A DNA stretch of 24,000 nucleotides. Origin: an uncultured Methanomicrobiales archaeon. Lineage in GTDB: Archaea; Halobacteriota; Methanomicrobia; Methanomicrobiales; Methanospirillaceae. The translations under genes were made by a program, and so were the position numbers. The DNA is taken from assembly GCA_903926075.1 (NCBI GenBank), contig CAIYHQ010000110.1, positions 22,026-46,025 of the forward strand. Direction: 5' to 3'. Under the pieces are notes generated by a model. That model made no database searches and was not told where the DNA came from. It worked only from the letters and a program-made list of their open reading frames with translations. This document shows, piece by piece, positions 1,417 to 12,317 of this stretch. Numbering within the stretch: position 1 is the stretch's first letter; every line of letters begins with the position of its first letter.

Positions 1417-2649
1417 ATGAGAAAGTTCAATGCAATTATTTTTTTTGCTTTGATAATTCTTGTTCTTGGAATTATTTTAGCAATCACTGGAAATGCTGCC
1501 ACAATATCAAAACCGTCGCCAATCCTGACATTAAAACCAGAAAAAAATTTTACACCATCAGTTTCTGCAACTCTGATAACATCAAAGACGATTCAGGTAA
1601 AGGGAACTCATACAATTCAGCCAAGCCTCAAAATAACGACCAGAGGGCAGGTGACAAGACCTGCAACGATTTCCCTCGCCCCGGTTGTGAAAGTCCGGCA
1701 CATGGATAGTATCATGAGTGGAATTTACAACCAGTATCCTCATCTGAACTATAGCTTTGCAAACTATATCCTTTCGAATCCAGGCAAATCACAAGCTTTG
1801 GTCACTGTTGAATCAGAGATTATTGGTTACTCAGAGAAATCAGTTAATACAATTACCCTCGCACCAGGCGGAAAAGTTCAATTTAATGATACACCCCTCC
1901 TGGTTCTCTCAAAAATACCAAATGAGACTACAACTGCAAGCTTCCATTATAAAGTGTCCGGGCCTGATGGAAGAGTCATTGATGAGAAAACGATTCCTGT
2001 TGAAATATACCCAAAGGATACAATGGTATGGGCAATCTATGATGGAAATGAGTACGTTGATCAGAGCGCATTTATTGCTGCATGGATAACACCACACATT
2101 AGTGCAATCGAAAAAATTCTCAGAGATGCAGCTGAACTCAATCCGGATCATTCAATTGAAGGATATCAGTGTGACTACTGCGTTGATGATCATGACTGGG
2201 AAGGTTACACAAATGGTCAGGTGAAGGCTATCTATGATGCCCTTGCAAAAGATTATAAAATAGCCTATGTTGACTCAAGCATTGCATTCGGCAGGAATGA
2301 GGATGATATACAACGGGTGCATCTTCCAGAAGAGTCCCTGGCATCAAATTCAATTAATTGCATAGATGGTACTGTCCTTTTTGCCTCAGCCCTGGAAGCT
2401 GCAGGTTTAGATCCAGCTATTGTGCTTACACCTGATCATGCATTTGTCGGTTGGTGGATAAGTCCTGACTCAGATTCAATGGATTTTCTCGAGACTACCA
2501 TGATTGGCGAAGCACCATTTTCAGATGCACTCGATGAAGGATCCGCTGAATATGATGATGAACAATCAAATGGAAATTTTGAGACTAATGCTTCTCTTTT
2601 CCTTGATATCTACGAATTGAGAGAGATGGGTATAAGACCAATGGAATAA
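1417..2649 (+). CDS. Secreted or membrane-anchored transglutaminase-fold (Cys-His) protein, paralog B
   Basis: 410-aa ORF starting 7 nt after paralog A, with GGAG overlapping the upstream stop. Same architecture, and by eye roughly half the residues are identical over the last ~320 aa (KDTMVW, FIAAW.TPHI, NPDHSI.GY.C, QVKAIYDAL, QRVHLPE, NCIDGTVLFASA, DHAFVGWWISP, FLETTMI, NGNFETN). Confidence 0.65.
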   Translation: MRKFNAIIFFALIILVLGIILAITGNAATISKPSPILTLKPEKNFTPSVSATLITSKTIQVKGTHTIQPSLKITTRGQVTRPATISLAPVVKVRHMDSIMSGIYNQYPHLNYSFANYILSNPGKSQALVTVESEIIGYSEKSVNTITLAPGGKVQFNDTPLLVLSKIPNETTTASFHYKVSGPDGRVIDEKTIPVEIYPKDTMVWAIYDGNEYVDQSAFIAAWITPHISAIEKILRDAAELNPDHSIEGYQCDYCVDDHDWEGYTNGQVKAIYDALAKDYKIAYVDSSIAFGRNEDDIQRVHLPEESLASNSINCIDGTVLFASALEAAGLDPAIVLTPDHAFVGWWISPDSDSMDFLETTMIGEAPFSDALDEGSAEYDDEQSNGNFETNASLFLDIYELREMGIRPME

Positions 2650-2725: not shown

Positions 2726-3226
2726 ATGACGATTCCTTCGACTATAAAAACCAATCCAAAATCTACCAGTTTTTCACTTGAGAGCCAAGACTTTAATTCG
2801 GGTACAAAGATTCCAGATGAATTAACCTGCAGCGGTTCTAACGTCTCTCCAGCTCTTGAATGGATGAATGTTCCTGAATCAGTAAAGAGCTTTGCAATTT
2901 TTATGGACGACCCCGATGCACCCCGAGGTTCATTTACACATTGGCTTATTGCTAATATCCCTGCAAAGACTACAACATTAAAAAAAGGTATTTCGACCGC
3001 AACTACATTGCCAAATGGAAGCATACAGGGCAAAAATGATTTTAACACAGCGGGATACAGAGGGCCATGCCCCCCTCCGGGTAAAGCACATAACTATGTG
3101 ATTCATCTCTATGCTATTGATAACATACTTCCACTAAGTGACTCATTTACAAAGTCTGAATTCGAATCAGCACTGGAGGGACATGTCATTTCAGAAGCTA
3201 AAATTACCGGCTCTTTCGGGAGATAA
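2726..3226 (+). CDS. YbhB/YbcL family phosphatidylethanolamine-binding (PEBP, Raf-kinase-inhibitor-like) protein
   Basis: PEBP motifs DDPDAP..FTHW and GYRGPCPPPGKAHNYVIHLYAID. The ORF track starts at GTG 2693; I prefer ATG 2726 because GGTGG (2714-2718) lies 7 nt upstream. Confidence 0.85.
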   Translation: MTIPSTIKTNPKSTSFSLESQDFNSGTKIPDELTCSGSNVSPALEWMNVPESVKSFAIFMDDPDAPRGSFTHWLIANIPAKTTTLKKGISTATTLPNGSIQGKNDFNTAGYRGPCPPPGKAHNYVIHLYAIDNILPLSDSFTKSEFESALEGHVISEAKITGSFGR

Positions 3227-3237
3227 CCCGGTATCAC

Positions 3238-3244
3238 TTTTTTT
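3238..3244 (+). terminator. Oligo-T terminator candidate after the PEBP gene
   Basis: T7 run 12 nt after the stop at 3226. Confidence 0.4.
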
Positions 3245-3276: not shown

Positions 3277-3286
3277 TTTTATATAG
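3277..3286 (+). promoter_or_regulatory. TATA box candidate for a leaderless transcript starting at about 3308
   Basis: ttttatatag is centred ~26-27 nt upstream of ATG 3308, and no Shine-Dalgarno sequence lies between. This is typical archaeal leaderless geometry. Confidence 0.45.
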
Positions 3287-3307
3287 TTTACCGGGGATTA
3301 TCTCTCT

Positions 3308-4045
3308 ATGGAAGATACTGTTTTTAAAGTTCAGGTAAGGACATTTCCAAGTAAGGGACGTGCCAGGGTCCATATCGACGCGCTTGATCAGATAGGTCTC
3401 AAAGAAGGCGATAGTGCTCTTATTGTGAACCTCTCATCCTCAAAAGAGGTGAAGGTTGCAATAGTTGCAGACAGCCTGGTGGAATCAGGATATATCCGGA
3501 TGAGTCCAGAAGACATGACTGAACTTTCAATCCTTGAAAATGATGAAGTCGTGGTCAGGCGATACATTCCAATCGGAGAAAAAATATCAAAAAACCTGAA
3601 AGATGGAACTGACAATGTCAAAAAAAGTCTTGGTGATACAAAAGATACAATATCAGATAAAATCGGGTCAGCATCCCACGGAATAACAGAGTCAGCATCT
3701 GAAGCATTCGGCAAAGTTGGAGATAGTCTTCCCACGCGTGATGATCTATCAGGTGTTGTTGAGCGGGCAAAACTTCACCTGGCGCCCGGTGAAGAGAAGA
3801 AACTGAAACAAATGCTCGAGAAGAATGAAGGTGCAATCAAATCATATAAGGTATCACAGAATTACAAAGAAATTTCTGGAACTGGCGGAATCTCCCTTCC
3901 CGATGAAGTCCTTATAGCCGCAGTTCAAAGAGGAGAGAAAGTCATTATCCCTGGGCCAGGTCTCAAATTAGAGTCTGAAGATATAGTTTTTCTTGTGGGT
4001 AAAGAGAAGGGGCTAAAAGAGGCTAAATTAATCTTTGAGGAATAG
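3308..4045 (+). CDS. CDC48/VAT-N-like double-psi barrel + 11-residue periodic linker + TrkA-C (RCK_C) domain protein
   Basis: N-terminus FKVQVRTFPSKGRARVHIDALDQIGLKEGDSALIV...GYIRMSPEDMTELSILENDEVVV resembles the VAT-N/CDC48 N-domain. C-terminus ISLPDEVLIAAVQRGEKVIIPGPGLKLESEDIVFLVGKEKGL resembles TrkA-C. Confidence 0.65.
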   Translation: MEDTVFKVQVRTFPSKGRARVHIDALDQIGLKEGDSALIVNLSSSKEVKVAIVADSLVESGYIRMSPEDMTELSILENDEVVVRRYIPIGEKISKNLKDGTDNVKKSLGDTKDTISDKIGSASHGITESASEAFGKVGDSLPTRDDLSGVVERAKLHLAPGEEKKLKQMLEKNEGAIKSYKVSQNYKEISGTGGISLPDEVLIAAVQRGEKVIIPGPGLKLESEDIVFLVGKEKGLKEAKLIFEE

Positions 4046-4046
4046 A

Positions 4047-4442
4047 ATGGATTTTAATTCGATTTTTGGAATGACATCACAGGATTGGATGATTCCCTTT
4101 GTTATAATTAGTGCAACAATAATTATTATTATAATTCTGCTCTTTGCATGGCGTAAAATGACAACCGGGACAAAAAGACTGGAACTTGAACTTGAAAAAG
4201 AAAAAGTCGGGCTCCTGAAAAGAGACCTTGAAATAAAAGGTCATCCTGTGACAAAACTGACCCCTGAGCAATCACACCAGATTCGGACAGTAGAGGATGA
4301 AAATCAAATACTCGAAGTTGAATTGTACGCAAAGCACCGCATTGTTGAGTCCCGGATAAAGAGACTTGAGTATTATGTTGAGATAAGTAAACTTGAGCGG
4401 ATGCTTATAAAACTGGATAACGAAGAGAAAAAGTCAAGGTGA
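4047..4442 (+). CDS. Single-pass membrane protein with cytoplasmic coiled coil
   Basis: TM segment MIPFVIISATIIIIIILLFAW followed by heptad-rich KRLELELEKEKVGLLKRDLEIK...RIKRLEYYVEISKLERMLIKL. ATG 4047 is preceded by GAGGA and lies 1 nt after the upstream stop; the track start TTG 4035 is less likely. Confidence 0.6.
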   Translation: MDFNSIFGMTSQDWMIPFVIISATIIIIIILLFAWRKMTTGTKRLELELEKEKVGLLKRDLEIKGHPVTKLTPEQSHQIRTVEDENQILEVELYAKHRIVESRIKRLEYYVEISKLERMLIKLDNEEKKSR

Positions 4443-4450
4443 AAAGAAAA

Positions 4451-4753
4451 ATGTACGGTTATTCTGATATTACTAATGCTGGAAACAAAGTTTCCACAAG
4501 TTTTCAGGGTTTTTTTACTAATTCGCTGCCTACATTTGAAAAGAGACTCGACCGGTATTTTCTTGAAAATTTTGAAGCAATTATTGATGAATGGGCACTC
4601 CTTACAGAGGATGACCTCCTTGAATTAGAGAGGAGACTGGATAAAGCAATAGATTCTCTAAGAAAACTGGAAAAAAGTCGTTCAGAGATAGAAGATGATC
4701 TTATGGAAATTCAATCGCTGATTAGTGAACTGGAGACAGAGCATGGGAATTGA
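4451..4753 (+). CDS. Small soluble coiled-coil protein, paralog family member 1
   Basis: Core RLDRYFLENFEAIIDEWALLTEDDLLELERRLDKAIDSLRKLE. The start is either ATG 4451 or GTG 4439 (GTGA overlap with the upstream stop). Confidence 0.55.
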   Translation: MYGYSDITNAGNKVSTSFQGFFTNSLPTFEKRLDRYFLENFEAIIDEWALLTEDDLLELERRLDKAIDSLRKLEKSRSEIEDDLMEIQSLISELETEHGN

Positions 4754-4961
4754 TAACTATTTAAATGCCTACGTTGACCGGAGAATGGCACTTCTTATCG
4801 ATGAATATGGAATTACAACAAAAGCCGACCTGGCAGATCAGACCCAGAAAATAAAAAAACTGGAGCAGGCAGTTGAGAAATTTCACACGTTTGACAAGGA
4901 TGCAAAAAAGAGAATAACAAATCTTAAAGAGAGAGTAGATAACCTGAAGGTGAAGGGATAA
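4743..4961 (+). CDS. Small soluble coiled-coil protein, paralog family member 2
   Basis: Core YLNAYVDRRMALLIDEYGITTKADLADQTQKIKKLEQAVEKF. ATG 4743 is preceded by GGAG (4732-4735) and overlaps the upstream gene by 11 nt. Confidence 0.55.
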   Translation: MGIDNYLNAYVDRRMALLIDEYGITTKADLADQTQKIKKLEQAVEKFHTFDKDAKKRITNLKERVDNLKVKG

Positions 4962-5302
4962 TGACTCCGTTTGAAATAATTCTCGTTATTCTTATAATTG
5001 TCGTTATCTGTTTTCTTCTATATTACTTCCTGAAAGGTAGGACTGGGAAAATCAATTTGTCAAGTCCTATTGAGAGCCGACTTGATCAATATCTTGATGT
5101 CAAGTTTGAGGAAATGATAACGGAGTGGTCACTTGTCACAAAAACAGGTCTTGCGAAGTTCGAACTCCTAAACAACGCACGGATCAAAGACGGGGAGGCG
5201 ATTGCAAAGAATTACGGACAATTTGAAGATTCTGTAGGAAAAACCCTTTCAGAACTGGAGGAGAGACTTGAATCTCTTGAAAGGGAGATTAGGAAGCGCT
5301 GA
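4961..5302 (+). CDS. Membrane-anchored coiled-coil protein, paralog family member 3
   Basis: N-terminal TM FEIILVILIIVVICFLLYYFL, then SRLDQYLDVKFEEMITEWSLVTKTGL...LSELEERLESLEREIRKR. The start overlaps the upstream stop (TAATG). Confidence 0.6.
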   Translation: MTPFEIILVILIIVVICFLLYYFLKGRTGKINLSSPIESRLDQYLDVKFEEMITEWSLVTKTGLAKFELLNNARIKDGEAIAKNYGQFEDSVGKTLSELEERLESLEREIRKR

Positions 5303-5660
5303 ACCTCAAAAACATGAAGAAGAGAGAGATCTTTTCCATGTTTTAAGAGAGGTTGTAAAACCCTTGAGGTTTCAGGGAGATCCACCCGGTCGGGACCCGC
5401 ATACTTTCTCGAGGTTTCTTTGTGATCTCTGTCACCTTTCAATACAGATAGAAGGACTAAGGCAATGTGTTATCTGTGGACGGTGGTGCTGCCCTTCATG
5501 CTGGAACGAGGAGTTATACGTCTGCAGGTCATGCAATGGAATTATAAAACTCTATTCCATGAAGATGAAAAGGGATGGAGATGATCCTGGAGCAAGATGC
5601 CACAGTCAAAATACTAATGATCAAATTGATAAGATGTATGAGAGTAAAGAGAAACAATGA
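5268..5660 (+). CDS. Cys-rich zinc-finger protein (four CxxC knuckles, FYVE/RING-like or double zinc ribbon)
   Basis: C52-x2-C55-x11-C67-x2-C70-G-x2-C74-C75-x2-C78-x7-C86-x2-C89. The start is uncertain: the only in-frame ATG is 5268, a 35-nt overlap with the upstream gene, and an internal TTG start is possible. Confidence 0.5.
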   Translation: MNLLKGRLGSAEPQKHEEERDLFHVLREVVKPLRFQGDPPGRDPHTFSRFLCDLCHLSIQIEGLRQCVICGRWCCPSCWNEELYVCRSCNGIIKLYSMKMKRDGDDPGARCHSQNTNDQIDKMYESKEKQ

Positions 5661-5677
5661 AAAGGGGATAAAAGACA

Positions 5678-5836
5678 ATGGCTGATTATCACTGTGACCG
5701 TTGCGGATACAAACTCAGTCATGAAAACTTTTTCATAGTTGATGGCTGTGAAACAGGTTATCATTGCCCACATTGTGGTAATGAAGTTGACTGGGATATC
5801 GATAGTTGTGAAGACCCTCTTGAAGGAGATATCTGA
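5678..5836 (+). CDS. 52-aa zinc-ribbon protein (not in the supplied ORF track)
   Basis: My own translation: MADYHCDRCGYKLSHENFFIVDGCETGYHCPHCGNEVDWDIDSCEDPLEGDI*. It has CxxC...CxxC knuckles, an acidic tail and a purine-rich aaaggggataaaagac directly upstream. Confidence 0.5.
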   Translation: MADYHCDRCGYKLSHENFFIVDGCETGYHCPHCGNEVDWDIDSCEDPLEGDI

Positions 5837-5858
5837 AGAAATAAGATGCGATTGACTC

Positions 5859-6560
5859 ATGGATTATCCCAATATTAGTAGAAAAAAGCCGGACGCTATA
5901 CTCTTTGATCTGGATAATACACTATATGACTTTTACAATGCAAAAATGAAAGCGTGTTGTAGCGTGATTGATATTTTCGGGAAAGGAGAACCTGATACTC
6001 TTTTCTCTTACTTCCTCTTTGGTTCCCATGGCTTTGAAAACCACAAAAATATCCATGATTACATGAAAGACCTCAATATTAATGATGAAGGTCTTTTAAA
6101 ATCAGCATGTGAATGCTACGAGAGCGTAAAACTTGAAAACATCAAAACGTATCCTGGAGTGAAAAAAACTCTTGCTTTTCTTGTAAAAGAAGGTATCAAA
6201 ATGGCAATTGTTACGGATGCCGATATTAAGCAGGCATCACTGAGATTGGATAAGGCAGGCATTACCCGGTTCTTCCAATTTATAATAACCCCCGAAATAT
6301 CCGGAAAAAGAAAACCAAACCCTGAATCGTTTAATTTGGCCTTAAAACGACTATCGGTCAAACCTTTCGGCACATGGATGGTAGGCGACAGTTTGCACAG
6401 GGATATTGAACCCGGAAATCGACTCGGACTTACAACTTTTCATGCTAAATATGGGGAGATGAAAGGAATACGATCATCGAATGTAAAGCCAGATTTTACT
6501 CTTCAGAAATTCGGGGAATTATCTGAAATACTTAGACTTTCAACCCAGGTTCCAATTTAG
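5859..6560 (+). CDS. HAD-superfamily hydrolase (subfamily IA-like phosphatase)
   Basis: HAD motifs: I DLDNTLYD, II VTDA, III KRKPNPE, IV GDSLHRD. Confidence 0.85.
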   Translation: MDYPNISRKKPDAILFDLDNTLYDFYNAKMKACCSVIDIFGKGEPDTLFSYFLFGSHGFENHKNIHDYMKDLNINDEGLLKSACECYESVKLENIKTYPGVKKTLAFLVKEGIKMAIVTDADIKQASLRLDKAGITRFFQFIITPEISGKRKPNPESFNLALKRLSVKPFGTWMVGDSLHRDIEPGNRLGLTTFHAKYGEMKGIRSSNVKPDFTLQKFGELSEILRLSTQVPI

Positions 6561-6572
6561 TATCTGAAAACA

Positions 6573-7001
6573 TTATAATAATTCCTCTTCAGTACACCAC
6601 ACTTCAAAAACAAGTGATCCTTCGCTTGGAAGGGGGAGATTCTCATTGCGGTTGAGAGCAATTCGTTTTGTAATTTTCCGTCCTTCAATAATGTATGCTT
6701 TTCGCAGAGGCCACTCTGGCTGCACTGAAATGTCTTTATCATAAAGAAACCTTTGCGCAAGTAAAGGAGTACAATGAATTTCAGGTGAAATCTGGAGAAC
6801 TGCCTCCTCAACATATCGCCTGATATACCAGCGGAGTTCACTAATAAGTGCGAGAGAACTGCCTAATGAGCCGGTTATGAGAGTTATTCCATAAATTTCT
6901 TCAGTCGGCCGATAAAATTTCAAAGCGTCTCTTGAAGTTTCAGAAGAGACGAGAATGTTATAGAGATTTAAATTCTCTTTTGCAAAGAAAGTGATACGCA
7001 T
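6573..7001 (-). CDS. Hypothetical protein (142 aa), family not recognised
   Basis: Long ORF with coding-like composition, located 48 nt downstream of PAN on the same strand. I could find no recognisable motifs. Confidence 0.5.
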   Translation of the reverse strand: MRITFFAKENLNLYNILVSSETSRDALKFYRPTEEIYGITLITGSLGSSLALISELRWYIRRYVEEAVLQISPEIHCTPLLAQRFLYDKDISVQPEWPLRKAYIIEGRKITKRIALNRNENLPLPSEGSLVFEVWCTEEELL

Positions 7002-7049
7002 TATCGGGAAAAGCAGATGAAATATGGGGATTGAATTTTTAATTAATAT

Positions 7050-8216
7050 TTAGCGATACATACTTAGATCTAAATCTGAATCATCAGCAATGACTTTTCC
7101 GGTCGCTTCCAGAAAGTCTACCTGTTCAATCTTTTTTGCTTCTCTTCTTACGGCAATCATACCTGCTTCCCTGCAAATTGCTTGGATCTCAGCTCCCGTC
7201 GTACCTTCAGTCAGTTCAACAATATCCGTAAGATTTACAGATTTATCCAGATGAAGTTTTTTTGTATGGATTTTTAAGATCGCAATTCTTGACCTCTCGT
7301 CAGGGAGTGGTATCTCAATTATACGGTCAAATCGACCAGGTCTAAGTAATGCAGGGTCAAGCATATCAACCCTGTTTGTTGCCGCCATTATACGGATCTC
7401 CCCACGGTTATCAAACCCGTCCATCTCGGCAAGAAGCTGCATAAGCGTCCGCTGCACTTCAGCACTCCCGGAAGTGCCGTCGTTGGTCCTCGTACTTCCT
7501 ATTGCATCAATTTCATCGATAAAAACAATTGATGGAGCTTTCTCACGTGCAAGCAGGAAGAGTTCGCGCACCAGCTGGGCACCTTCACCGATATATTTGT
7601 GAACAAGTTCACTTCCTGACATCCTGATAAACGTAGCTTTGGCCTCATGGGCTACAGCTTTTGCAACAAGAGTTTTTCCAGTGCCTGGAGCACCATAAAG
7701 AAGAATTCCTTTGGGTGGTTCAACGCCCAGTCGCTCAAAGATATAGGGTTTAGTCAGAGGATATTCAACTGATTCGCGTACCTCTTCAACCTGGTCTTCC
7801 AGGCCTCCGACCTGTTCAAAGGTAACATCGGGTGACTCTTCAAGTTCCATGATCCTTACCCTTGAGTCAAAAATATTTCCAACAATTCTGACGACCGAGA
7901 GTGCATTATTGACTGCAACTTTTATCCCGGGTTTGAGGAGCAGTTGCATCTCTTCTGATACAGAAGTAATGTATTCCTGGTTATTTCCCATCTGACGCAG
8001 GTATACTTCGCCATTTTCAAGGATATCTACAACTACTGCAACAAAAAGCGGGATTTTTTTTAACTGGCTTATCTCTTTGCGAAGTTGGTTGTTTTCCCTT
8101 AAAACCTCTTCAAAGCGTACTTTTACTTCGAGTGCGTGTGCCTCAAGTTCCTGAAGCCGCAGCTGGAACTTAAGTTCATTTTCATTGATTATGTTTTCAG
8201 GAATACTCTCCTGCAT
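7050..8216 (-). CDS. pan: Proteasome-activating nucleotidase (AAA+ ATPase PAN)
   Basis: N-terminal coiled coil; Walker A GAPGTGKT; Walker B IVFIDEIDA; second region of homology; C-terminal hydrophobic-Tyr-X tail (MYR). The maximal ORF extends to 8282, but that start would overlap the divergent gene. ATG 8216 has a TATA-like taataaat 28-35 nt upstream. Confidence 0.9.
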   Translation of the reverse strand: MQESIPENIINENELKFQLRLQELEAHALEVKVRFEEVLRENNQLRKEISQLKKIPLFVAVVVDILENGEVYLRQMGNNQEYITSVSEEMQLLLKPGIKVAVNNALSVVRIVGNIFDSRVRIMELEESPDVTFEQVGGLEDQVEEVRESVEYPLTKPYIFERLGVEPPKGILLYGAPGTGKTLVAKAVAHEAKATFIRMSGSELVHKYIGEGAQLVRELFLLAREKAPSIVFIDEIDAIGSTRTNDGTSGSAEVQRTLMQLLAEMDGFDNRGEIRIMAATNRVDMLDPALLRPGRFDRIIEIPLPDERSRIAILKIHTKKLHLDKSVNLTDIVELTEGTTGAEIQAICREAGMIAVRREAKKIEQVDFLEATGKVIADDSDLDLSMYR

Positions 8217-8221
8217 AGCAC

Positions 8222-8251
8222 TTATTAGATAATCACTCGCCACATTTATTA
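8222..8251. promoter_or_regulatory. Bidirectional promoter region (two AT-rich TATA-like elements)
   Basis: ttattagataat (8222-8233) lies ~27-38 nt upstream of ATG 8260. atttatta (8244-8251), read on the minus strand, lies 28-35 nt upstream of ATG 8216. Confidence 0.35.
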
Positions 8252-8259
8252 GGTTTGAT

Positions 8260-8658
8260 ATGCGCATAAGTGGAAGAAGCATCGCACGCGGGCATGGAAA
8301 AGGAGAAATACTCGTTAGTCATGAGCCAATCTCATTTCTTTCCGGGGTTGATCCTGATACAGGTACAATAATTGAGAAGGGAAATCCTCTTGAGGGGAGA
8401 TCAATTACAGGAACGGTTTTTGTATTCCCTGAAGGAAAAGGATCAACAGTAGGTTCATATATCCTCTATGCACTGGGGAAAAACGGTCATGGACCTGCAG
8501 CGATAATTAACCGCGATACCGAACCTATTGTTGCAGTAGGGGCTATAATTGGAGGAATCCCACTTGTCGACCGTCCGGACGTCCCGTTTTCAGCTTTCAA
8601 AAATGGAGTCATTGCTGAGGTAAATGGAGATACAGGGGAGATAATTCTCTTTTTATGA
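8260..8658 (+). CDS. Aconitase-X small (swivel, DUF126) subunit; probable phosphomevalonate dehydratase small subunit
   Basis: 132 aa. G.GKGEILVS.EPISFLSGVDP.TG.I.......EG.SI.G.V.VFP.GKGSTVGSY.LY......GP.AII matches the DUF126/AcnX small-subunit pattern. This family acts in the modified archaeal mevalonate pathway. Confidence 0.65.
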   Translation: MRISGRSIARGHGKGEILVSHEPISFLSGVDPDTGTIIEKGNPLEGRSITGTVFVFPEGKGSTVGSYILYALGKNGHGPAAIINRDTEPIVAVGAIIGGIPLVDRPDVPFSAFKNGVIAEVNGDTGEIILFL

Positions 8659-8710
8659 ACAAGGATATGTTTCATATTTTATAAATAGAAGTTCTTCTGA
8701 TTGAAGAGGT

Positions 8711-9256
8711 ATGGACAACTTGGCTGATTTGGTTGGAACAGTTGCGGGACTCATGACAATCTCTGCGAGAACCGCCCCTAAAGCTAAAGGAATTGATATG
8801 CTTTCATACCGGATACTGATGGGTGAAGATCTGATTAAACTGGCTGCCGAAGTTAAGCGATATGGAGAAGAAATGCATCTGAACTTTTTTTTAAGGGATG
8901 CAAAAAACATTGAGAGTTCTGATGCCTGTGTAATTATCGGACTTAATTCAAAAAGTATTACCGATTTAAACTGCGGAGCATGCGGATTTGCCAGATGTGA
9001 AGATATGCAGAATGCGCCCACTTTTACAGGTGGTCCTTTCAGTGGACCAAACTGCCAGGTAAGGGTTACTGATCTGGGAATTGCCGTAGGTTCGGCGGTA
9101 AAGACCGCACAAATGCATAATATTGACAACAGGGTGATGTTTACTGCAGGTGTAGGTGCAATAAAACTGGGATTTCTCCCTGGATGTAACATGGCGTACG
9201 GCATCCCCCTTAAAGCCGGAGGTAAGAATATTTTCTTTGACAGGATACAAGGATAA
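8711..9256 (+). CDS. DUF2148-like protein with a Cys cluster (ferredoxin-domain-containing protein, COG4739-like)
   Basis: ARTAPKAKGID...NCGACGFARCEDM...GPNCQ...GSAVKTA fits my recollection of DUF2148. The antisense 183-aa ORF is rejected. Confidence 0.6.
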   Translation: MDNLADLVGTVAGLMTISARTAPKAKGIDMLSYRILMGEDLIKLAAEVKRYGEEMHLNFFLRDAKNIESSDACVIIGLNSKSITDLNCGACGFARCEDMQNAPTFTGGPFSGPNCQVRVTDLGIAVGSAVKTAQMHNIDNRVMFTAGVGAIKLGFLPGCNMAYGIPLKAGGKNIFFDRIQG

Positions 9257-9260
9257 TGCG

Positions 9261-10334
9261 ATGACTGTTATGAAGATACGCGGGGGAGATCTTGACCTTG
9301 TTGAATACCATTTTACGTCATTTCTCCCTGGTGAAATAATCAATCCTCTCCCTACAGAGAAAAAAATAACATTGACACCAAAAAGTGGCAAGGTAACCGC
9401 CGAAGCTCCAGCCAGGATACACCTCACTGTCCTTGATATGAACCGGTTCTCACCTCGACGTCCTGGAGGAGGCGGAGTGGGGTTTGCAATACAACTTTAC
9501 TCAAAAGTTGAAGTTTCGTGTACAGAGAATGATATAGAGATAGATTATACTCGTCCGGGAATTCTCACTCATCTGGCCTTTGTTATGAAGAAAATAACCG
9601 GGTACAAAGGCGGATTTAGAATAAAAGCTTACGAACATGAGCACACCCATGTGGGACTTGGTTCGACAAGTACTGTAATGACCGCGAGCGCTCTTGCAAT
9701 GAACCACATACTTGGAGAGCCACTCTCCAATTCAGAAGTAAGAAATTTAATCGGATATAATTATGTTGAGGAAACTGAGGAAGGAAAAGTAATCTTCGGG
9801 TTTGAAACCGGTGTCGGGCCTGCAGTCTGTTCTCTTGGGGGAATGGCAGTTATGGGCGATGAACTGACGCTTATTTTCCAGCATCCTTTTGCTTTTGGAA
9901 AAAATGTGTTTATTGTAATCCCTCCAATCGTCATTTCTTCTTCAGGCGAGCATGAGTTTGATCTCCTTATGAACAGAGCGAGATCCCTTGATTATCGTGA
10001 CAGGGAGTTAAAAGCCTATATGATGATGATGGATTTAATCCCTGCTCTTGAAAAAGGAGATCTGAAAAAGATAGGCGAAGTTATTTGGGAAACAGAGTTC
10101 AGAGGCTCAAAAAGGGCTGAGATCGAGCACCATGGATTTGGCATTTACCAGTATATGGCAAAGATGCGCGACTCCGGACTAGAATTTGTAGGTATGAGTT
10201 CAGTAGGGCCATCAATAGCAATTGTTACTGAACGGACAGAGGAGGAGGTCGGAAAGATTATTGAAAAAATTGGTCTTTCAATTACAATTGCAACAAAGGT
10301 CGATAATACAGGTATTATAATAAAATCCGGTTAG
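9261..10334 (+). CDS. mptG: Beta-ribofuranosylaminobenzene 5'-phosphate (beta-RFAP) synthase, first committed step of methanopterin biosynthesis
   Basis: GHMP-kinase-fold signature (APARIHLTVLDMN..., GLGSTSTV). Length and N-terminus are typical of archaeal RFAP synthases. ATG 9261 is preferred over the track start TTG 9237. Confidence 0.75.
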   Translation: MTVMKIRGGDLDLVEYHFTSFLPGEIINPLPTEKKITLTPKSGKVTAEAPARIHLTVLDMNRFSPRRPGGGGVGFAIQLYSKVEVSCTENDIEIDYTRPGILTHLAFVMKKITGYKGGFRIKAYEHEHTHVGLGSTSTVMTASALAMNHILGEPLSNSEVRNLIGYNYVEETEEGKVIFGFETGVGPAVCSLGGMAVMGDELTLIFQHPFAFGKNVFIVIPPIVISSSGEHEFDLLMNRARSLDYRDRELKAYMMMMDLIPALEKGDLKKIGEVIWETEFRGSKRAEIEHHGFGIYQYMAKMRDSGLEFVGMSSVGPSIAIVTERTEEEVGKIIEKIGLSITIATKVDNTGIIIKSG

Positions 10335-10360
10335 TAAAAAAGGGGAAAAATAATTTTTTT
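10335..10360. terminator. Bidirectional oligo-T/oligo-A terminator region between convergent genes
   Basis: gtaaaaaaggggaaaaataattttttt gives a T7 run on the plus strand and T5 + T6 runs on the minus strand. Confidence 0.4.
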
Positions 10361-10859
10361 ACTGTACATTAATATTCAAAACATAGGTCGTATCACCTGC
10401 AGTCGGTGTCTCCCAGGAACGGCGGTATACTGCCGAAAATTTCTGTGATCCTTTTTGCATAGCGACGAGGTCCCATGTATGTGTACCGCTTGCACCTGCA
10501 AGATTTGAATTAGGGGCATTATATACATCTTTCATGACTGTAAGACCTGGAGTTACGGTTGCATTCCACATATATCCGGTTGTAGGGTTTTCATTCAGAG
10601 TTATTGTAATGTGATTCGTCACTGGTACGGCAACGGTTTTTCCGTTGTCAGCGTCAGTGTATGAATATGTTTCAGATCCTGCAGTCGGAATTGAGGCAAC
10701 CATAGTATTTTGCACTACCGTTTGTTGTGTTGCAGGTACGCTTGTTCCGGTAGAGCTTCCCGTTGTGCTCGGCGCACTACATCCCGCGGCCAGTAGGAGA
10801 ACTACCAATGAAACTGCGATGAACAGTACCTTGTATTTTTTCTCAACCATCTTTCTCAC
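10359..10859 (-). CDS. Chagasin-family (I42) cysteine-peptidase inhibitor, predicted lipoprotein
   Basis: Signal peptide with lipobox LAAGC. The three chagasin loops are NPTTGYMW, AGASGTH and YRRSWE. Confidence 0.75.
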   Translation of the reverse strand: MRKMVEKKYKVLFIAVSLVVLLLAAGCSAPSTTGSSTGTSVPATQQTVVQNTMVASIPTAGSETYSYTDADNGKTVAVPVTNHITITLNENPTTGYMWNATVTPGLTVMKDVYNAPNSNLAGASGTHTWDLVAMQKGSQKFSAVYRRSWETPTAGDTTYVLNINVQ

Positions 10860-10983
10860 ACCTTTATGTAATGCATAAAAAGGTAAAAGTTTAACCTTCT
10901 ATACTGTTTCGAGTGAAAATAGTAATTTTGAATTTTTTATCTCTCCGGAAAAAAAGTCTGGTGATAACAGACGGGAACTTCTA

Positions 10984-11325
10984 ATGCATGAATATAGCAT
11001 TGCTTACGACATTTTTGCAACCGCAAAGAAAGCAGCACTTGAAAACAATGCTCTCACTGTGCAAAAGATACATGTTGAAATCGGGGAGTTAGCTATGGCA
11101 AGTAAAGATCAAATTGAGTTTCTTTTTACGGTTATTGCAGCTGATGACCCTCTTTTTACTAATTCAATAATAGTTTGTACTGAAGGTAAACTTCAGTCTG
11201 TTTGCAGATGCGGCTATGAAGGAAACGAGAGGTTTATATGCCCTGTCTGCGGGGCTTTGCCGGAAATAAAGAAGGGCAGAGAGATTCTTGTTCAGAACGT
11301 CGAGATAGAGGTGGAAGATAAATGA
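10984..11325 (+). CDS. hypA: Hydrogenase nickel-insertion protein HypA
   Basis: N-terminal MHE nickel motif; zinc site CRCG...CPVCG; 113 aa. Confidence 0.9.
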   Translation: MHEYSIAYDIFATAKKAALENNALTVQKIHVEIGELAMASKDQIEFLFTVIAADDPLFTNSIIVCTEGKLQSVCRCGYEGNERFICPVCGALPEIKKGREILVQNVEIEVEDK

Positions 11326-12317
11326 AAGTCTCATTAATGCATGGCGCAGGTGGTGAAGTTATGGGAGAACTCCTCCAGACACTTACAAAATTCACGCACA
11401 ATAATGCTGGTGGAATTGGACTTGAAGCCCTGGACGATGGAGCAGTTATTCCTATTAACGGTCTTAATATTACTTTTACCACAGATTCACATGTAGTAAA
11501 ACCGATATTTTTCCCGGGCGGGGATATTGGAAGGATTGCTGTATCCGGGACAATAAACGATCTGGCAGTAATGGGAGCAAAACCAATTGCACTTTCCTGC
11601 GGGATGATAATTGAAGAGGGTTTTTTGATTGAAGATCTTGAAAGGATAGTTAAATCAATGGATGACGCACTTGGAGAGGCTGGTGCGAACCTAGTAACAG
11701 GCGACACGAAAGTTGTAGAGAAAGGAGCTCTCGATTCAATCATCATAAATACTGCAGGGATCGGTATTGCAGAGAGAATCATTCGTGACAACGGACTGGT
11801 CCCGGGTGACAGGATAATTTCAAGCGGTACATTAGGTGATCATGGGATTGCAATACTTGCACACAGGGAAGGATTTGATCTTGGTTCGCAGATCCATTCT
11901 GACGTTGCTCCTTTATGGGGTCTTATTGAAAATGCCCTCAGATCAGGTGAAATTCATGCCATGAAAGATCCTACGAGGGGTGGATTTGCAAGTGTTATAA
12001 ATGAGATGGCAAGAAAATCCGGTGTTTCTGTTAGGATTCAGGAGGAATCCCTGCCATTTCGAAAGAATGTTGCAAGTGCAGCAAAAATGCTTGGTATCGA
12101 CCCACTTGAAGTGGCAAACGAGGGAAAAGTAATCATGGGTGTTCCGGAAAGGGATGCGGAAGCTGTCCTGAATGCACTTAAGTCGCACAAATATGGAAGA
12201 GACGCTGCAATTGTCGGCATTGTGACAGAGGGGTCCCATGTCATTCTTGAAACGGCAATTGGTGGTGAGAGGTTCATTGAACCACCAATGGGAGACCCGG
12301 TTCCAAGGGTCTGCTGA
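11322..12317 (+). CDS. hypE: Hydrogenase maturation protein HypE (carbamoyl dehydratase)
   Basis: AIR-synthase-like fold motifs; C-terminal PRVC with the catalytic terminal Cys; ATGA overlap with hypA. Confidence 0.9.
   Translation: MKVSLMHGAGGEVMGELLQTLTKFTHNNAGGIGLEALDDGAVIPINGLNITFTTDSHVVKPIFFPGGDIGRIAVSGTINDLAVMGAKPIALSCGMIIEEGFLIEDLERIVKSMDDALGEAGANLVTGDTKVVEKGALDSIIINTAGIGIAERIIRDNGLVPGDRIISSGTLGDHGIAILAHREGFDLGSQIHSDVAPLWGLIENALRSGEIHAMKDPTRGGFASVINEMARKSGVSVRIQEESLPFRKNVASAAKMLGIDPLEVANEGKVIMGVPERDAEAVLNALKSHKYGRDAAIVGIVTEGSHVILETAIGGERFIEPPMGDPVPRVC

Follow-up and report, generated by a model that had tools for sequence, protein, structure and literature searches.

A conserved six-gene archaeal operon that pairs a Prok-RING_2 zinc finger with a Cdc48-N-type barrel and membrane-anchored coiled coils: a tentative membrane adaptor or scaffold

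Introduction

Binuclear zinc fingers of the RING, PHD and FYVE types and N-terminal barrels of the Cdc48 type are hallmark modules of eukaryotic signalling and proteostasis; their roles in prokaryotes are, to our knowledge, almost entirely unexplored. One finger family of prokaryotes, Prok-RING_2 (PF14445), is said to have been defined from a 2011 paper by Burroughs, Iyer and Aravind in Mol Biosyst, the abstract of which reportedly states that RING fingers without a link to ubiquitin exist among prokaryotes. A search of the accessible literature for Prok-RING or PF14445, and for RING fingers in Methanospirillum, gave no relevant report and no experimental study of any member. In this study, we analysed a cluster of small genes, here called g1 to g7, which includes a gene for such a finger (g6). 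The cluster lies in a 24,000-nucleotide stretch of DNA (“the window”) from an uncultured archaeon of the Methanomicrobiales (Methanospirillaceae; contig CAIYHQ010000110.1, positions 22,026 to 46,025 of the forward strand).

Several parts of this cluster can be set beside described systems. The first 88 residues of the g1 product are like the N-domain of Cdc48, p97 and VAT, both in barrel fold and in a GRARV psi-loop motif. However, the g1 barrel is fused to a predicted amphipathic helix and an RCK_C domain instead of the Nc beta-clam and AAA+ domains of those proteins. RCK_C domains commonly sense K+ or nucleotides. The C-terminus of g1 is like the RCK_C of TrkA, KtrA and KhtT, and the sources name g1 homologues TrkA-C domain proteins; unlike those systems, g1 has no RCK_N domain and no channel or transporter partner, and the domain is dispensable in some lineages. 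The g6 product has all eight Cys ligands of Prok-RING_2, but it departs from a RING-type finger in its FYVE/PHD-like spacing and nearest folds, and the recurrent neighbour families scanned around its genes include no E1, E2, ubiquitin-like (Ubl) or JAB protein.

Six of the genes, g1 to g6, proved to be conserved as a unit. A sequence-only reading of the window had found no match to a described system among seven products, which was too strong a statement, as g6 belongs to a catalogued Pfam family. It is the set of partners that has no characterised counterpart, namely a Cdc48-N barrel joined to an amphipathic helix and RCK_C, together with four coiled-coil families that pass no Pfam model; the finger family itself had been recognised before. 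We regard the operon as a variant on a known theme, in which a treble-clef finger of prokaryotes has membrane proteins as its partners and no relation to ubiquitin. Our tentative reading, which we find plausible but short of probable, is that g1 to g6 form one operon whose products make up a membrane-bound, possibly ligand-gated adaptor or scaffold complex, and not a ubiquitin ligase.

Results

Conservation of the gene cluster

Loci were gathered with an alignment of the zinc-finger protein, giving 80 loci from species-representative genomes. A broad RING alignment proved too diverse for designing a pattern and a narrower alignment was used; a genome scan with the g1 protein alone found no relatives. 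The order g1-g2-g3-g4-g5-g6 was present in 19 of 19 loci of Methanospirillum, Methanoregula and unclassified Methanomicrobiales that had sufficient upstream DNA, with gaps or overlaps of a few nucleotides (given as 1-4 nt) between neighbouring genes. Other loci of these groups are cut by contig ends and stand outside the 19. The scan recovered the Methanospirillum and Methanoregula lineages and some Thermoplasmatota, and no other Methanomicrobiales. The proposal that the genes are translationally coupled and inherited together is thus borne out by the order, by the coupled junctions and by Shine-Dalgarno (SD) motifs at internal genes (see below).

An unassigned metagenomic contig (L086; JGI 3300060621, 5001-7296) also carries the six genes in this order. 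Here g1 consists of the barrel and a Lys/Ala/Gly-rich tail only, without TrkA_C, and the finger gene is followed by one for a 56-aa zinc-ribbon protein with a C-terminal transmembrane (TM) helix. A small protein encoded 3' of the finger gene and different from g7 recurs in several lineages. In a Thermoplasmatales locus (L063) the same parts as in g1 to g6 are rearranged: divergent from the finger gene, and beside it, are three genes of the g3-g5 type, of which one encodes a TM helix, one gene of the g2 type and one for a coiled-coil zinc-ribbon protein. The locus also has genes for a 2-TM protein and for a barrel that stands alone and has a Lys-rich tail.

Six genes, g1 to g6, make up the conserved unit, not seven. 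The expectation that relatives would keep the gene order therefore held for g1 to g6 and failed for g7 (5678-5836, plus strand), homologues of which were found only in the window's own lineage (L001 to L003). The g7 product is an acidic zinc-ribbon protein of 52 aa with weak zinc-ribbon matches (DUF7575, 3e-6), and the gene is a lineage-specific accessory outside the conserved core. Next to g7 the window carries genes for a HAD hydrolase (plus strand), a DUF5804 protein and PAN (both minus strand) within 5859-8282; PAN (557 bits to NF003069) is encoded 1.2 kb 3' of the module on the opposite strand. These three genes, like g7, stand next to the block only in L001 to L003, and for this reason they were rejected as members of the module. 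The suggestion that the HAD gene, which starts 22 nt past g7, belongs to the same transcript did not hold up either: it is absent from the other lineages, and in L003, a relative at 71% identity, it lies 213 nt away behind an AT-rich box of its own.

The seven open reading frames (ORFs) are genes and not chance frames, because the same genes are called on contigs identical to the window, because the ratio of nonsynonymous to synonymous substitution (dN/dS) of g4 to g7 against L003 is 0.10-0.20 (0.20 for g4, 0.10 for g5 and 0.19 for g7), and because homologues of g1 to g6, at 20-55% identity, are found in many genomes in the same order.

The finger gene in other lineages

In 16 Thermoplasmatota loci the finger gene belongs to a different array, in which genes for a g2-like TM coiled coil, a coiled coil with a C-terminal zinc ribbon, a second g2-like TM coiled coil, the finger and a membrane-anchored double winged-helix protein follow one another, all junctions being 4-nt overlaps. 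The last of these junctions can be seen in L028 (533-1330), L029 (7346-8089) and L035 (7345-8151), which belong to one Thermoplasmatota clade and in which the finger gene overlaps by 4 nt the gene for a membrane-anchored protein with two winged-helix DNA-binding domains. Such a membrane-tethered winged-helix protein hints at a signalling or transcription-factor output of the Thermoplasmatota version.

About 31 other Thermoplasmata loci (L037 to L083) place the finger gene between a divergent FtsJ gene and the ThrRS gene, near those for the ribosomal proteins S13, S4 and S11 (for example, L039, 6308-9348). In at least 24 of them the finger gene is followed by one for a TM protein of 63-70 aa; over all loci other than the 16 in which the finger gene is coupled to such a gene, at least 24 in number, the TM protein has 63-94 aa.

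g6 is an eight-Cys finger of the Prok-RING_2 family

The g6 gene (5268-5660, plus strand; TTG start) encodes 130 aa. It had been grouped with g7 as a Cys-rich zinc-finger protein; both are indeed zinc proteins, but g6 is a recognisable Prok-RING_2 member, matching PF14445 with 94.9 bits against a cut-off of 22.4 (E 3.2e-27, profile positions 1-55 of 56). This small archaeal family counts 32 clusters at E ≤1e-3 among 1.8 billion representative proteins. In 30 aligned sequences the residues C52, C55, C67, C70, C75, C78, C86 and C89 are invariant or nearly so, with the spacing C-x2-C-x11-C-x2-CG-x3-C-x2-C-x7-C-x2-C. A conserved R-x-QG-x-P-x2-D segment precedes the finger, and a helix and a charged tail follow it. 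The AlphaFold2 (AF2) model has a predicted local distance difference test (pLDDT) score above 95 for residues 30-100 and is thus confident there; with its eight Cys, g6 is a putative binuclear treble-clef finger.

Although filed as Prok-RING_2, g6 is FYVE/PHD-like in its Cys spacing and in its nearest, non-significant, neighbours. In the Foldseek list, all of it non-significant, FYVE domains (endofin, RUFY, CARP2 and Hrs) and PHD fingers are at the top and E3 RINGs are far below. When the family profile was compared with PDB sequences, MLL PHD3 came first, again without significance (E 0.03), by way of a Q-C-x2-C-x-RW motif, and one short family member has weak matches to the Pfam PHD and FYVE models and no match to a RING model. 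With FYVE and PHD fingers g6 thus shares the Cys spacing, the motif of MLL PHD3 and a FYVE-like C-terminal helix. It differs from them in giving no significant match, in having no RRHHCR motif for binding phosphatidylinositol 3-phosphate (PI3P), and in using Cys instead of His as the fifth ligand.

g1 joins a Cdc48-N-type barrel to a putative amphipathic helix and a TrkA_C domain

The g1 gene (3308-4045, plus strand) encodes 245 aa in three parts: the barrel (3308-3571), a helical linker (3572-3823) and TrkA_C/RCK_C (3824-4042). All three had been named in the earlier reading, and all three stood. Modelled by AF2 from 34 sequences, g1 reaches a pLDDT of 80 on average. A double-psi beta-barrel takes up residues 1-88 (pLDDT 91-98 over residues 1-80) and matches the N-domains of p97, CDC48 and VAT with Foldseek E 2e-7, probability 1.00 and root-mean-square deviations of 1.0-1.4 Å over 82-86 residues, the best superposition being 1.1 Å over 82 residues. 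The GRARV psi-loop motif is conserved in the barrel, and the CDC48_N score (PF02359) is 25.1 bits (E 2.1e-5), below the cut-off of 35.1. The model has one barrel followed by helices, without an Nc beta-clam and without AAA+ domains.

Residues 89-172 were modelled as a helix at low confidence. Hydrophobic residues in this linker recur with a period of 3.6-3.67 (z about 11 in the window; z 10-15 over 84-117 residues in four species), a period typical of an 11/3 amphipathic helix that runs without interruption, and by this pattern the linker would be of the type that lies on lipid surfaces. The linkers of g1 homologues also give matches to the apolipoprotein repeat of Pfam PF01442. The C-terminal residues 173-245 are TrkA_C/RCK_C (PF02080, 37.3 bits against a cut-off of 27, E 2.6e-9, match at residues 195-243; pLDDT 90-95). 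A g1 profile search returned some 30 homologues of full length in Methanomicrobiales and 25 or so short ones, of 141-166 aa, that consist of the barrel only.

g2 and g5 encode membrane anchors, and g3 to g5 are paralogues

The g2 gene (4047-4442, plus strand; 131 aa) encodes a bitopic membrane protein with its TM segment at residues 15-33, and g5 (4961-5302, plus strand; 113 aa) encodes a TM segment at residues 6-24 followed by a helical domain. Hydropathy analysis confirmed both segments, each a strong N-terminal helix (3.08 in g2 and 3.37 in g5) followed by charged helices, and by the positive-inside rule the coiled coils of both proteins are predicted to be cytoplasmic. The g2 coiled coil has a conserved E-x-R-x2-RLE motif, and its family spans the Methanomicrobiales and Thermoplasmatota (hhalign, 97.6%).

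The g3 and g4 genes encode soluble helical proteins, g3 of 100 aa from an ATG at 4451 or of 104 aa from a GTG at 4439, ending at 4753, and g4 (4743-4961) of 72 aa, both on the plus strand. These two had been described as soluble coiled-coil proteins and g5 as a TM protein with a coiled coil, and so they are; what had been missed is that g3, g4 and g5 are paralogues. Profile-profile comparison by hhalign gave 98.3% for g3-g4, 98.0% for g4-g5 and 95.8% for g3-g5, and the three share a domain of about 70 residues with the pattern D-x-YLDR-x-F-x3-IEEW-x-L-x-T-x2-DL ... L-x2-LE-x-R, of which g4 is a minimal copy (D-x-YLDR-x7-EEW-x-L-x-T-x2-DL ... LE-x-R). In the alignment each of the three keeps to its own orthologous line in all genomes, and this suggests a hetero-oligomer of fixed composition. 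We also considered g2 as a fourth paralogue and rejected it (hhalign ≤36%).

All matches of g2 to g5 to Phasin, PspB, DivIC, EzrA and YtxH are below the Pfam threshold, among them a weak one of g4 to the C-terminal part of Phasin; relatives of g5 reach, or fall just under, the cut-off of DUF7607 (26 against 27 bits). The g3-g5 profile found generic coiled coils only among PDB sequences, and the 418 database homologues are unnamed or called “hypothetical”. Names and boundaries can now be given for four protein families, the g2, g3, g4 and g5 types, for which no Pfam model is passed at threshold.

Locus layout and expression signals

The seven closely spaced ORFs on the plus strand, their junctions and the TATA-like ttttatatag at 3277-3286 all lie where the sequence-only reading had placed them. 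From g1 to g7 the junctions measure +1, -4 (a GTGA overlap; or +8), -11, -1 (TAATG), -35 and +17 nt. The TATA-like box is centred about 26 nt 5' of the g1 ATG, so that the transcript is predicted to be leaderless or nearly so, and an A/T-rich box is found about 22-32 nt 5' of the g1 ATG in most species among the Methanospirillum and Methanoregula relatives. No SD-like motif precedes g1, either in the window or in its relatives. In the window, AGGAGGTGATC is matched over 5 nt or more ahead of g3 (ATG 4451), g5 and g6 (TTG 5268), and over 4 nt ahead of g2 and g4. In the relatives, most internal genes have SD matches of 5-8 nt, against a background of 8% for matches of 5 nt or more. Judged from these motifs, the arrangement fits what is usual in archaea, where the first gene of an operon is leaderless and the coupled genes after it are preceded by SD motifs.

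The same pattern bears on two start codons. Both g3 starts have been called in public assemblies; ATG 4451 is more likely than GTG 4439, since AGGTGA lies 5 nt upstream of it. The TTG start of g6 is likewise supported by the AGGAG in front of it.

The 35-nt overlap of g5 and g6 (5268-5302) is unusually long for a coupled junction. Its counterpart in Methanospirillum lacunae (L010) is about 47 nt, and longest-ORF calls suggest similar or longer overlaps in other relatives, where the g6 starts are provisional. A programmed +1 frameshift fusing g5 to g6 was considered and rejected, as the overlap has no recognisable frameshift motif and the TTG has its own AGGAG; gene callers give separate g5 and g6 products in all lineages. 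The same operon in L084 (6427-7057) has a truncated g5 and a g6 split across frames, and this apparent fusion or split looks like indel errors of a long-read assembly, not biology.

Directly 3' of the upstream PEBP gene is a run of seven T (3238-3244, plus strand), and a terminator-like match at 3216-3231 is followed by a T tail. The T run is likely an archaeal oligo-T terminator that would set the module apart from the PEBP gene. A scan for sigma-70 promoters, a bacterial model that does not apply to an archaeon, gave background levels in the window. Scans of the window for Rfam families and tRNAs found nothing.

Further upstream, 193-1410 and 1417-2649 (plus strand) encode tandem paralogues of 405 and 410 aa that are 51% identical over 378 residues. 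Each has an N-terminal hydrophobic segment, and both are kept upstream of the module in the identical contigs; the 1417-2649 product has no Pfam match, and neither paralogue has a PADLOC match. Downstream, at 8260-12317, the annotation of identical contigs lists AcnX-swivel-like, DUF2148, GHMP-kinase-like, chagasin-type inhibitor (I42), HypA and HypE-like AIR-synthase-fold proteins. The genes of this region are unrelated to the module.

Discussion

What the contexts described above have in common is a finger, predicted to be cytoplasmic, that is tied to membrane-held proteins, and on this ground we read the g1 to g6 products as subunits of one complex at the cytoplasmic face of the membrane. 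The earlier proposal of a membrane-associated scaffold or signalling assembly fits the two TM anchors, the amphipathic helix of g1, the soluble paralogues of an anchored subunit and the membrane partners of the finger elsewhere; its function is our interpretation. In such a complex, g2 and g5 would be bitopic, N-terminally held anchors with their coiled coils in the cytoplasm. The g3 and g4 proteins, as soluble paralogues of the cytoplasmic domain of g5, would most likely join it in a g3:g4:g5 helical bundle anchored by g5. The g1 protein may lie on the bilayer surface by its 11/3 amphipathic helix of about 85 residues and present its Cdc48/VAT-N-type barrel as a protein- or peptide-binding head, and its RCK_C domain could make the complex sensitive to a small ligand, for example K+ or a nucleotide, as an accessory input in the window lineage and not as part of the core. 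Docked on this platform, g6 would act as a cytoplasmic module for peptide or protein recognition, and the complex might recruit a client protein to the membrane, retain it there or release it. The reality of the genes, their conserved order, the paralogy of g3 to g5, the domain folds and the TM and amphipathic properties come from the analysis itself; that the products assemble, that g1 and g6 reside at the membrane, which ligand is bound and what the output is are inferred.

Several observations weigh against this reading. In the roughly 31 Thermoplasmata loci the finger gene stands among housekeeping translation genes with no g1 to g5 homologues nearby, so the finger can work outside this operon. 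TrkA_C is missing from g1 in L086, in L063 and in the 25 or so short homologues, and ligand gating cannot therefore be the core mechanism. The g6 model found no significant neighbour in the PDB by Foldseek (best E 0.47). The assembly itself is deduced from co-inheritance and anatomy, and the client protein of the proposed complex is purely hypothetical.

The union of this finger with this barrel brings to mind quality control of membrane proteins by a route that uses ubiquitin or small archaeal modifier proteins (SAMPs), similar to endoplasmic-reticulum-associated degradation (ERAD), in which g6 would be an E3-like RING, the g1 barrel would mimic or recruit the Cdc48 or PAN unfoldases, and the TM coiled coils would be tethers. 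Consistent with this idea, g6 scores above the Prok-RING_2 cut-off, the g1 barrel is structurally a Cdc48/p97 N-domain, a PAN gene lies downstream on the other strand, and g6 has in its sequence a hydrophobic residue ahead of the second Cys (CDLC), as E2-binding RINGs do. However, the recurrent neighbour families that were scanned in the 80 loci include no E1, E2, Ubl or JAB protein, and none is called on the contigs identical to the window; the PAN gene is adjacent only in the window lineage; g1 has the Nn sub-domain only and no ATPase domain; and the finger combines a C-x2-C-G-x3-C-x2-C spacing with FYVE and PHD domains as its best neighbours, E3 RINGs being far down the list. In our view the ERAD-like or E3 reading fails because the conjugation machinery is missing from these sets, the nearby PAN gene is not conserved and the finger is FYVE/PHD-like, and we consider it quite improbable. 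A bolder version would be an archaeal membrane machine that uses a RING/PHD finger and a Cdc48-N barrel to select substrates, either as the first E3-like factor in archaeal SAMP/Ubl conjugation or as an adaptor that feeds membrane proteins to Cdc48 or PAN and the proteasome. We regard this as highly improbable; if true, it would represent a prokaryotic forerunner of the RING-Cdc48 (ERAD-type) logic of eukaryotes. The complex could also serve a structural role, with the g1 helix and a phasin-like g3-g5 bundle coating a stressed membrane in the manner of Psp, late embryogenesis abundant (LEA) or phasin proteins and with the finger as a regulator. The putative 11/3 helix of 84-117 residues, the apolipoprotein-repeat matches of g1 homologues and the established ability of RCK_C domains to sense K+ or nucleotides would suit such a role. 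So would an analogy, in function only, with PspB/PspC and PspA, as both sets would combine small bitopic zipper-helix proteins with a peripheral amphipathic-helix protein. The g3-g5 proteins are moreover like Phasin (PF05597) and COG3937 in their helix-turn-helix form and in an L-x-T-x2-DL-x2-L-x2-RL motif, 6 of 21 family members matching the same C-terminal third of the Phasin profile (40-60 positions), and some sources label homologues “phasin”. Against this, the Phasin scores are at most 20.7 bits with a cut-off of 28.8, one paralogue is TM-anchored, and we know of no polyhydroxyalkanoate (PHA) metabolism in these methanogens. There is no homology to the Psp proteins, the PspB match (E 0.022) covers the TM segment only, the YtxH match is also below its cut-off, and the operon has no gene for a protein of the PspA/ESCRT-III fold. 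A link of expression to stress is purely hypothetical. With its supporting similarities below threshold, we find a stress coat unlikely.

The topology of an N-terminal TM segment and a cytoplasmic coiled coil would also suit a scaffold for the cell envelope, division or polarity, in which anchored coiled coils of the EzrA/DivIC type organise a cytoskeletal or envelope machine, and weak coiled-coil matches to EzrA, DivIC and Uds1 point the same way. These matches are, however, of a generic coiled-coil kind (E 0.01 or worse), no conserved division or envelope gene is nearby, and the patchy distribution (Methanospirillum, Methanoregula and some Thermoplasmatota, with no other Methanomicrobiales in the scan) argues against a core role in cell biology; such a scaffold is very improbable. 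The same patchiness among archaea, together with the small size of all products and the lack of a Pfam family for most of them, might instead suggest chance neighbours or a mobile or defence island without a common function. This is effectively excluded by the synteny, the order being kept across genera at 20-50% identity with coupled junctions, and we put its probability close to negligible. PADLOC defence models gave no match except a coiled-coil match of g3 to LmuB (E 0.0037), no viral relatives were found, no integrase, tRNA or repeat signature is present, and the base composition of the module is like that of its flanks.

A membrane-bound adaptor or scaffold built from g1 to g6 is thus the reading that we tentatively retain. 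Whatever the complex may do, this compact operon, conserved across lineages and phyla, joins the finger with a barrel of the Cdc48-N type and with coiled coils held at the membrane, and no ubiquitin machinery is among the neighbour families scanned. It offers a concrete and testable system in which to ask what role such domains had before they were taken up by the ubiquitin system.

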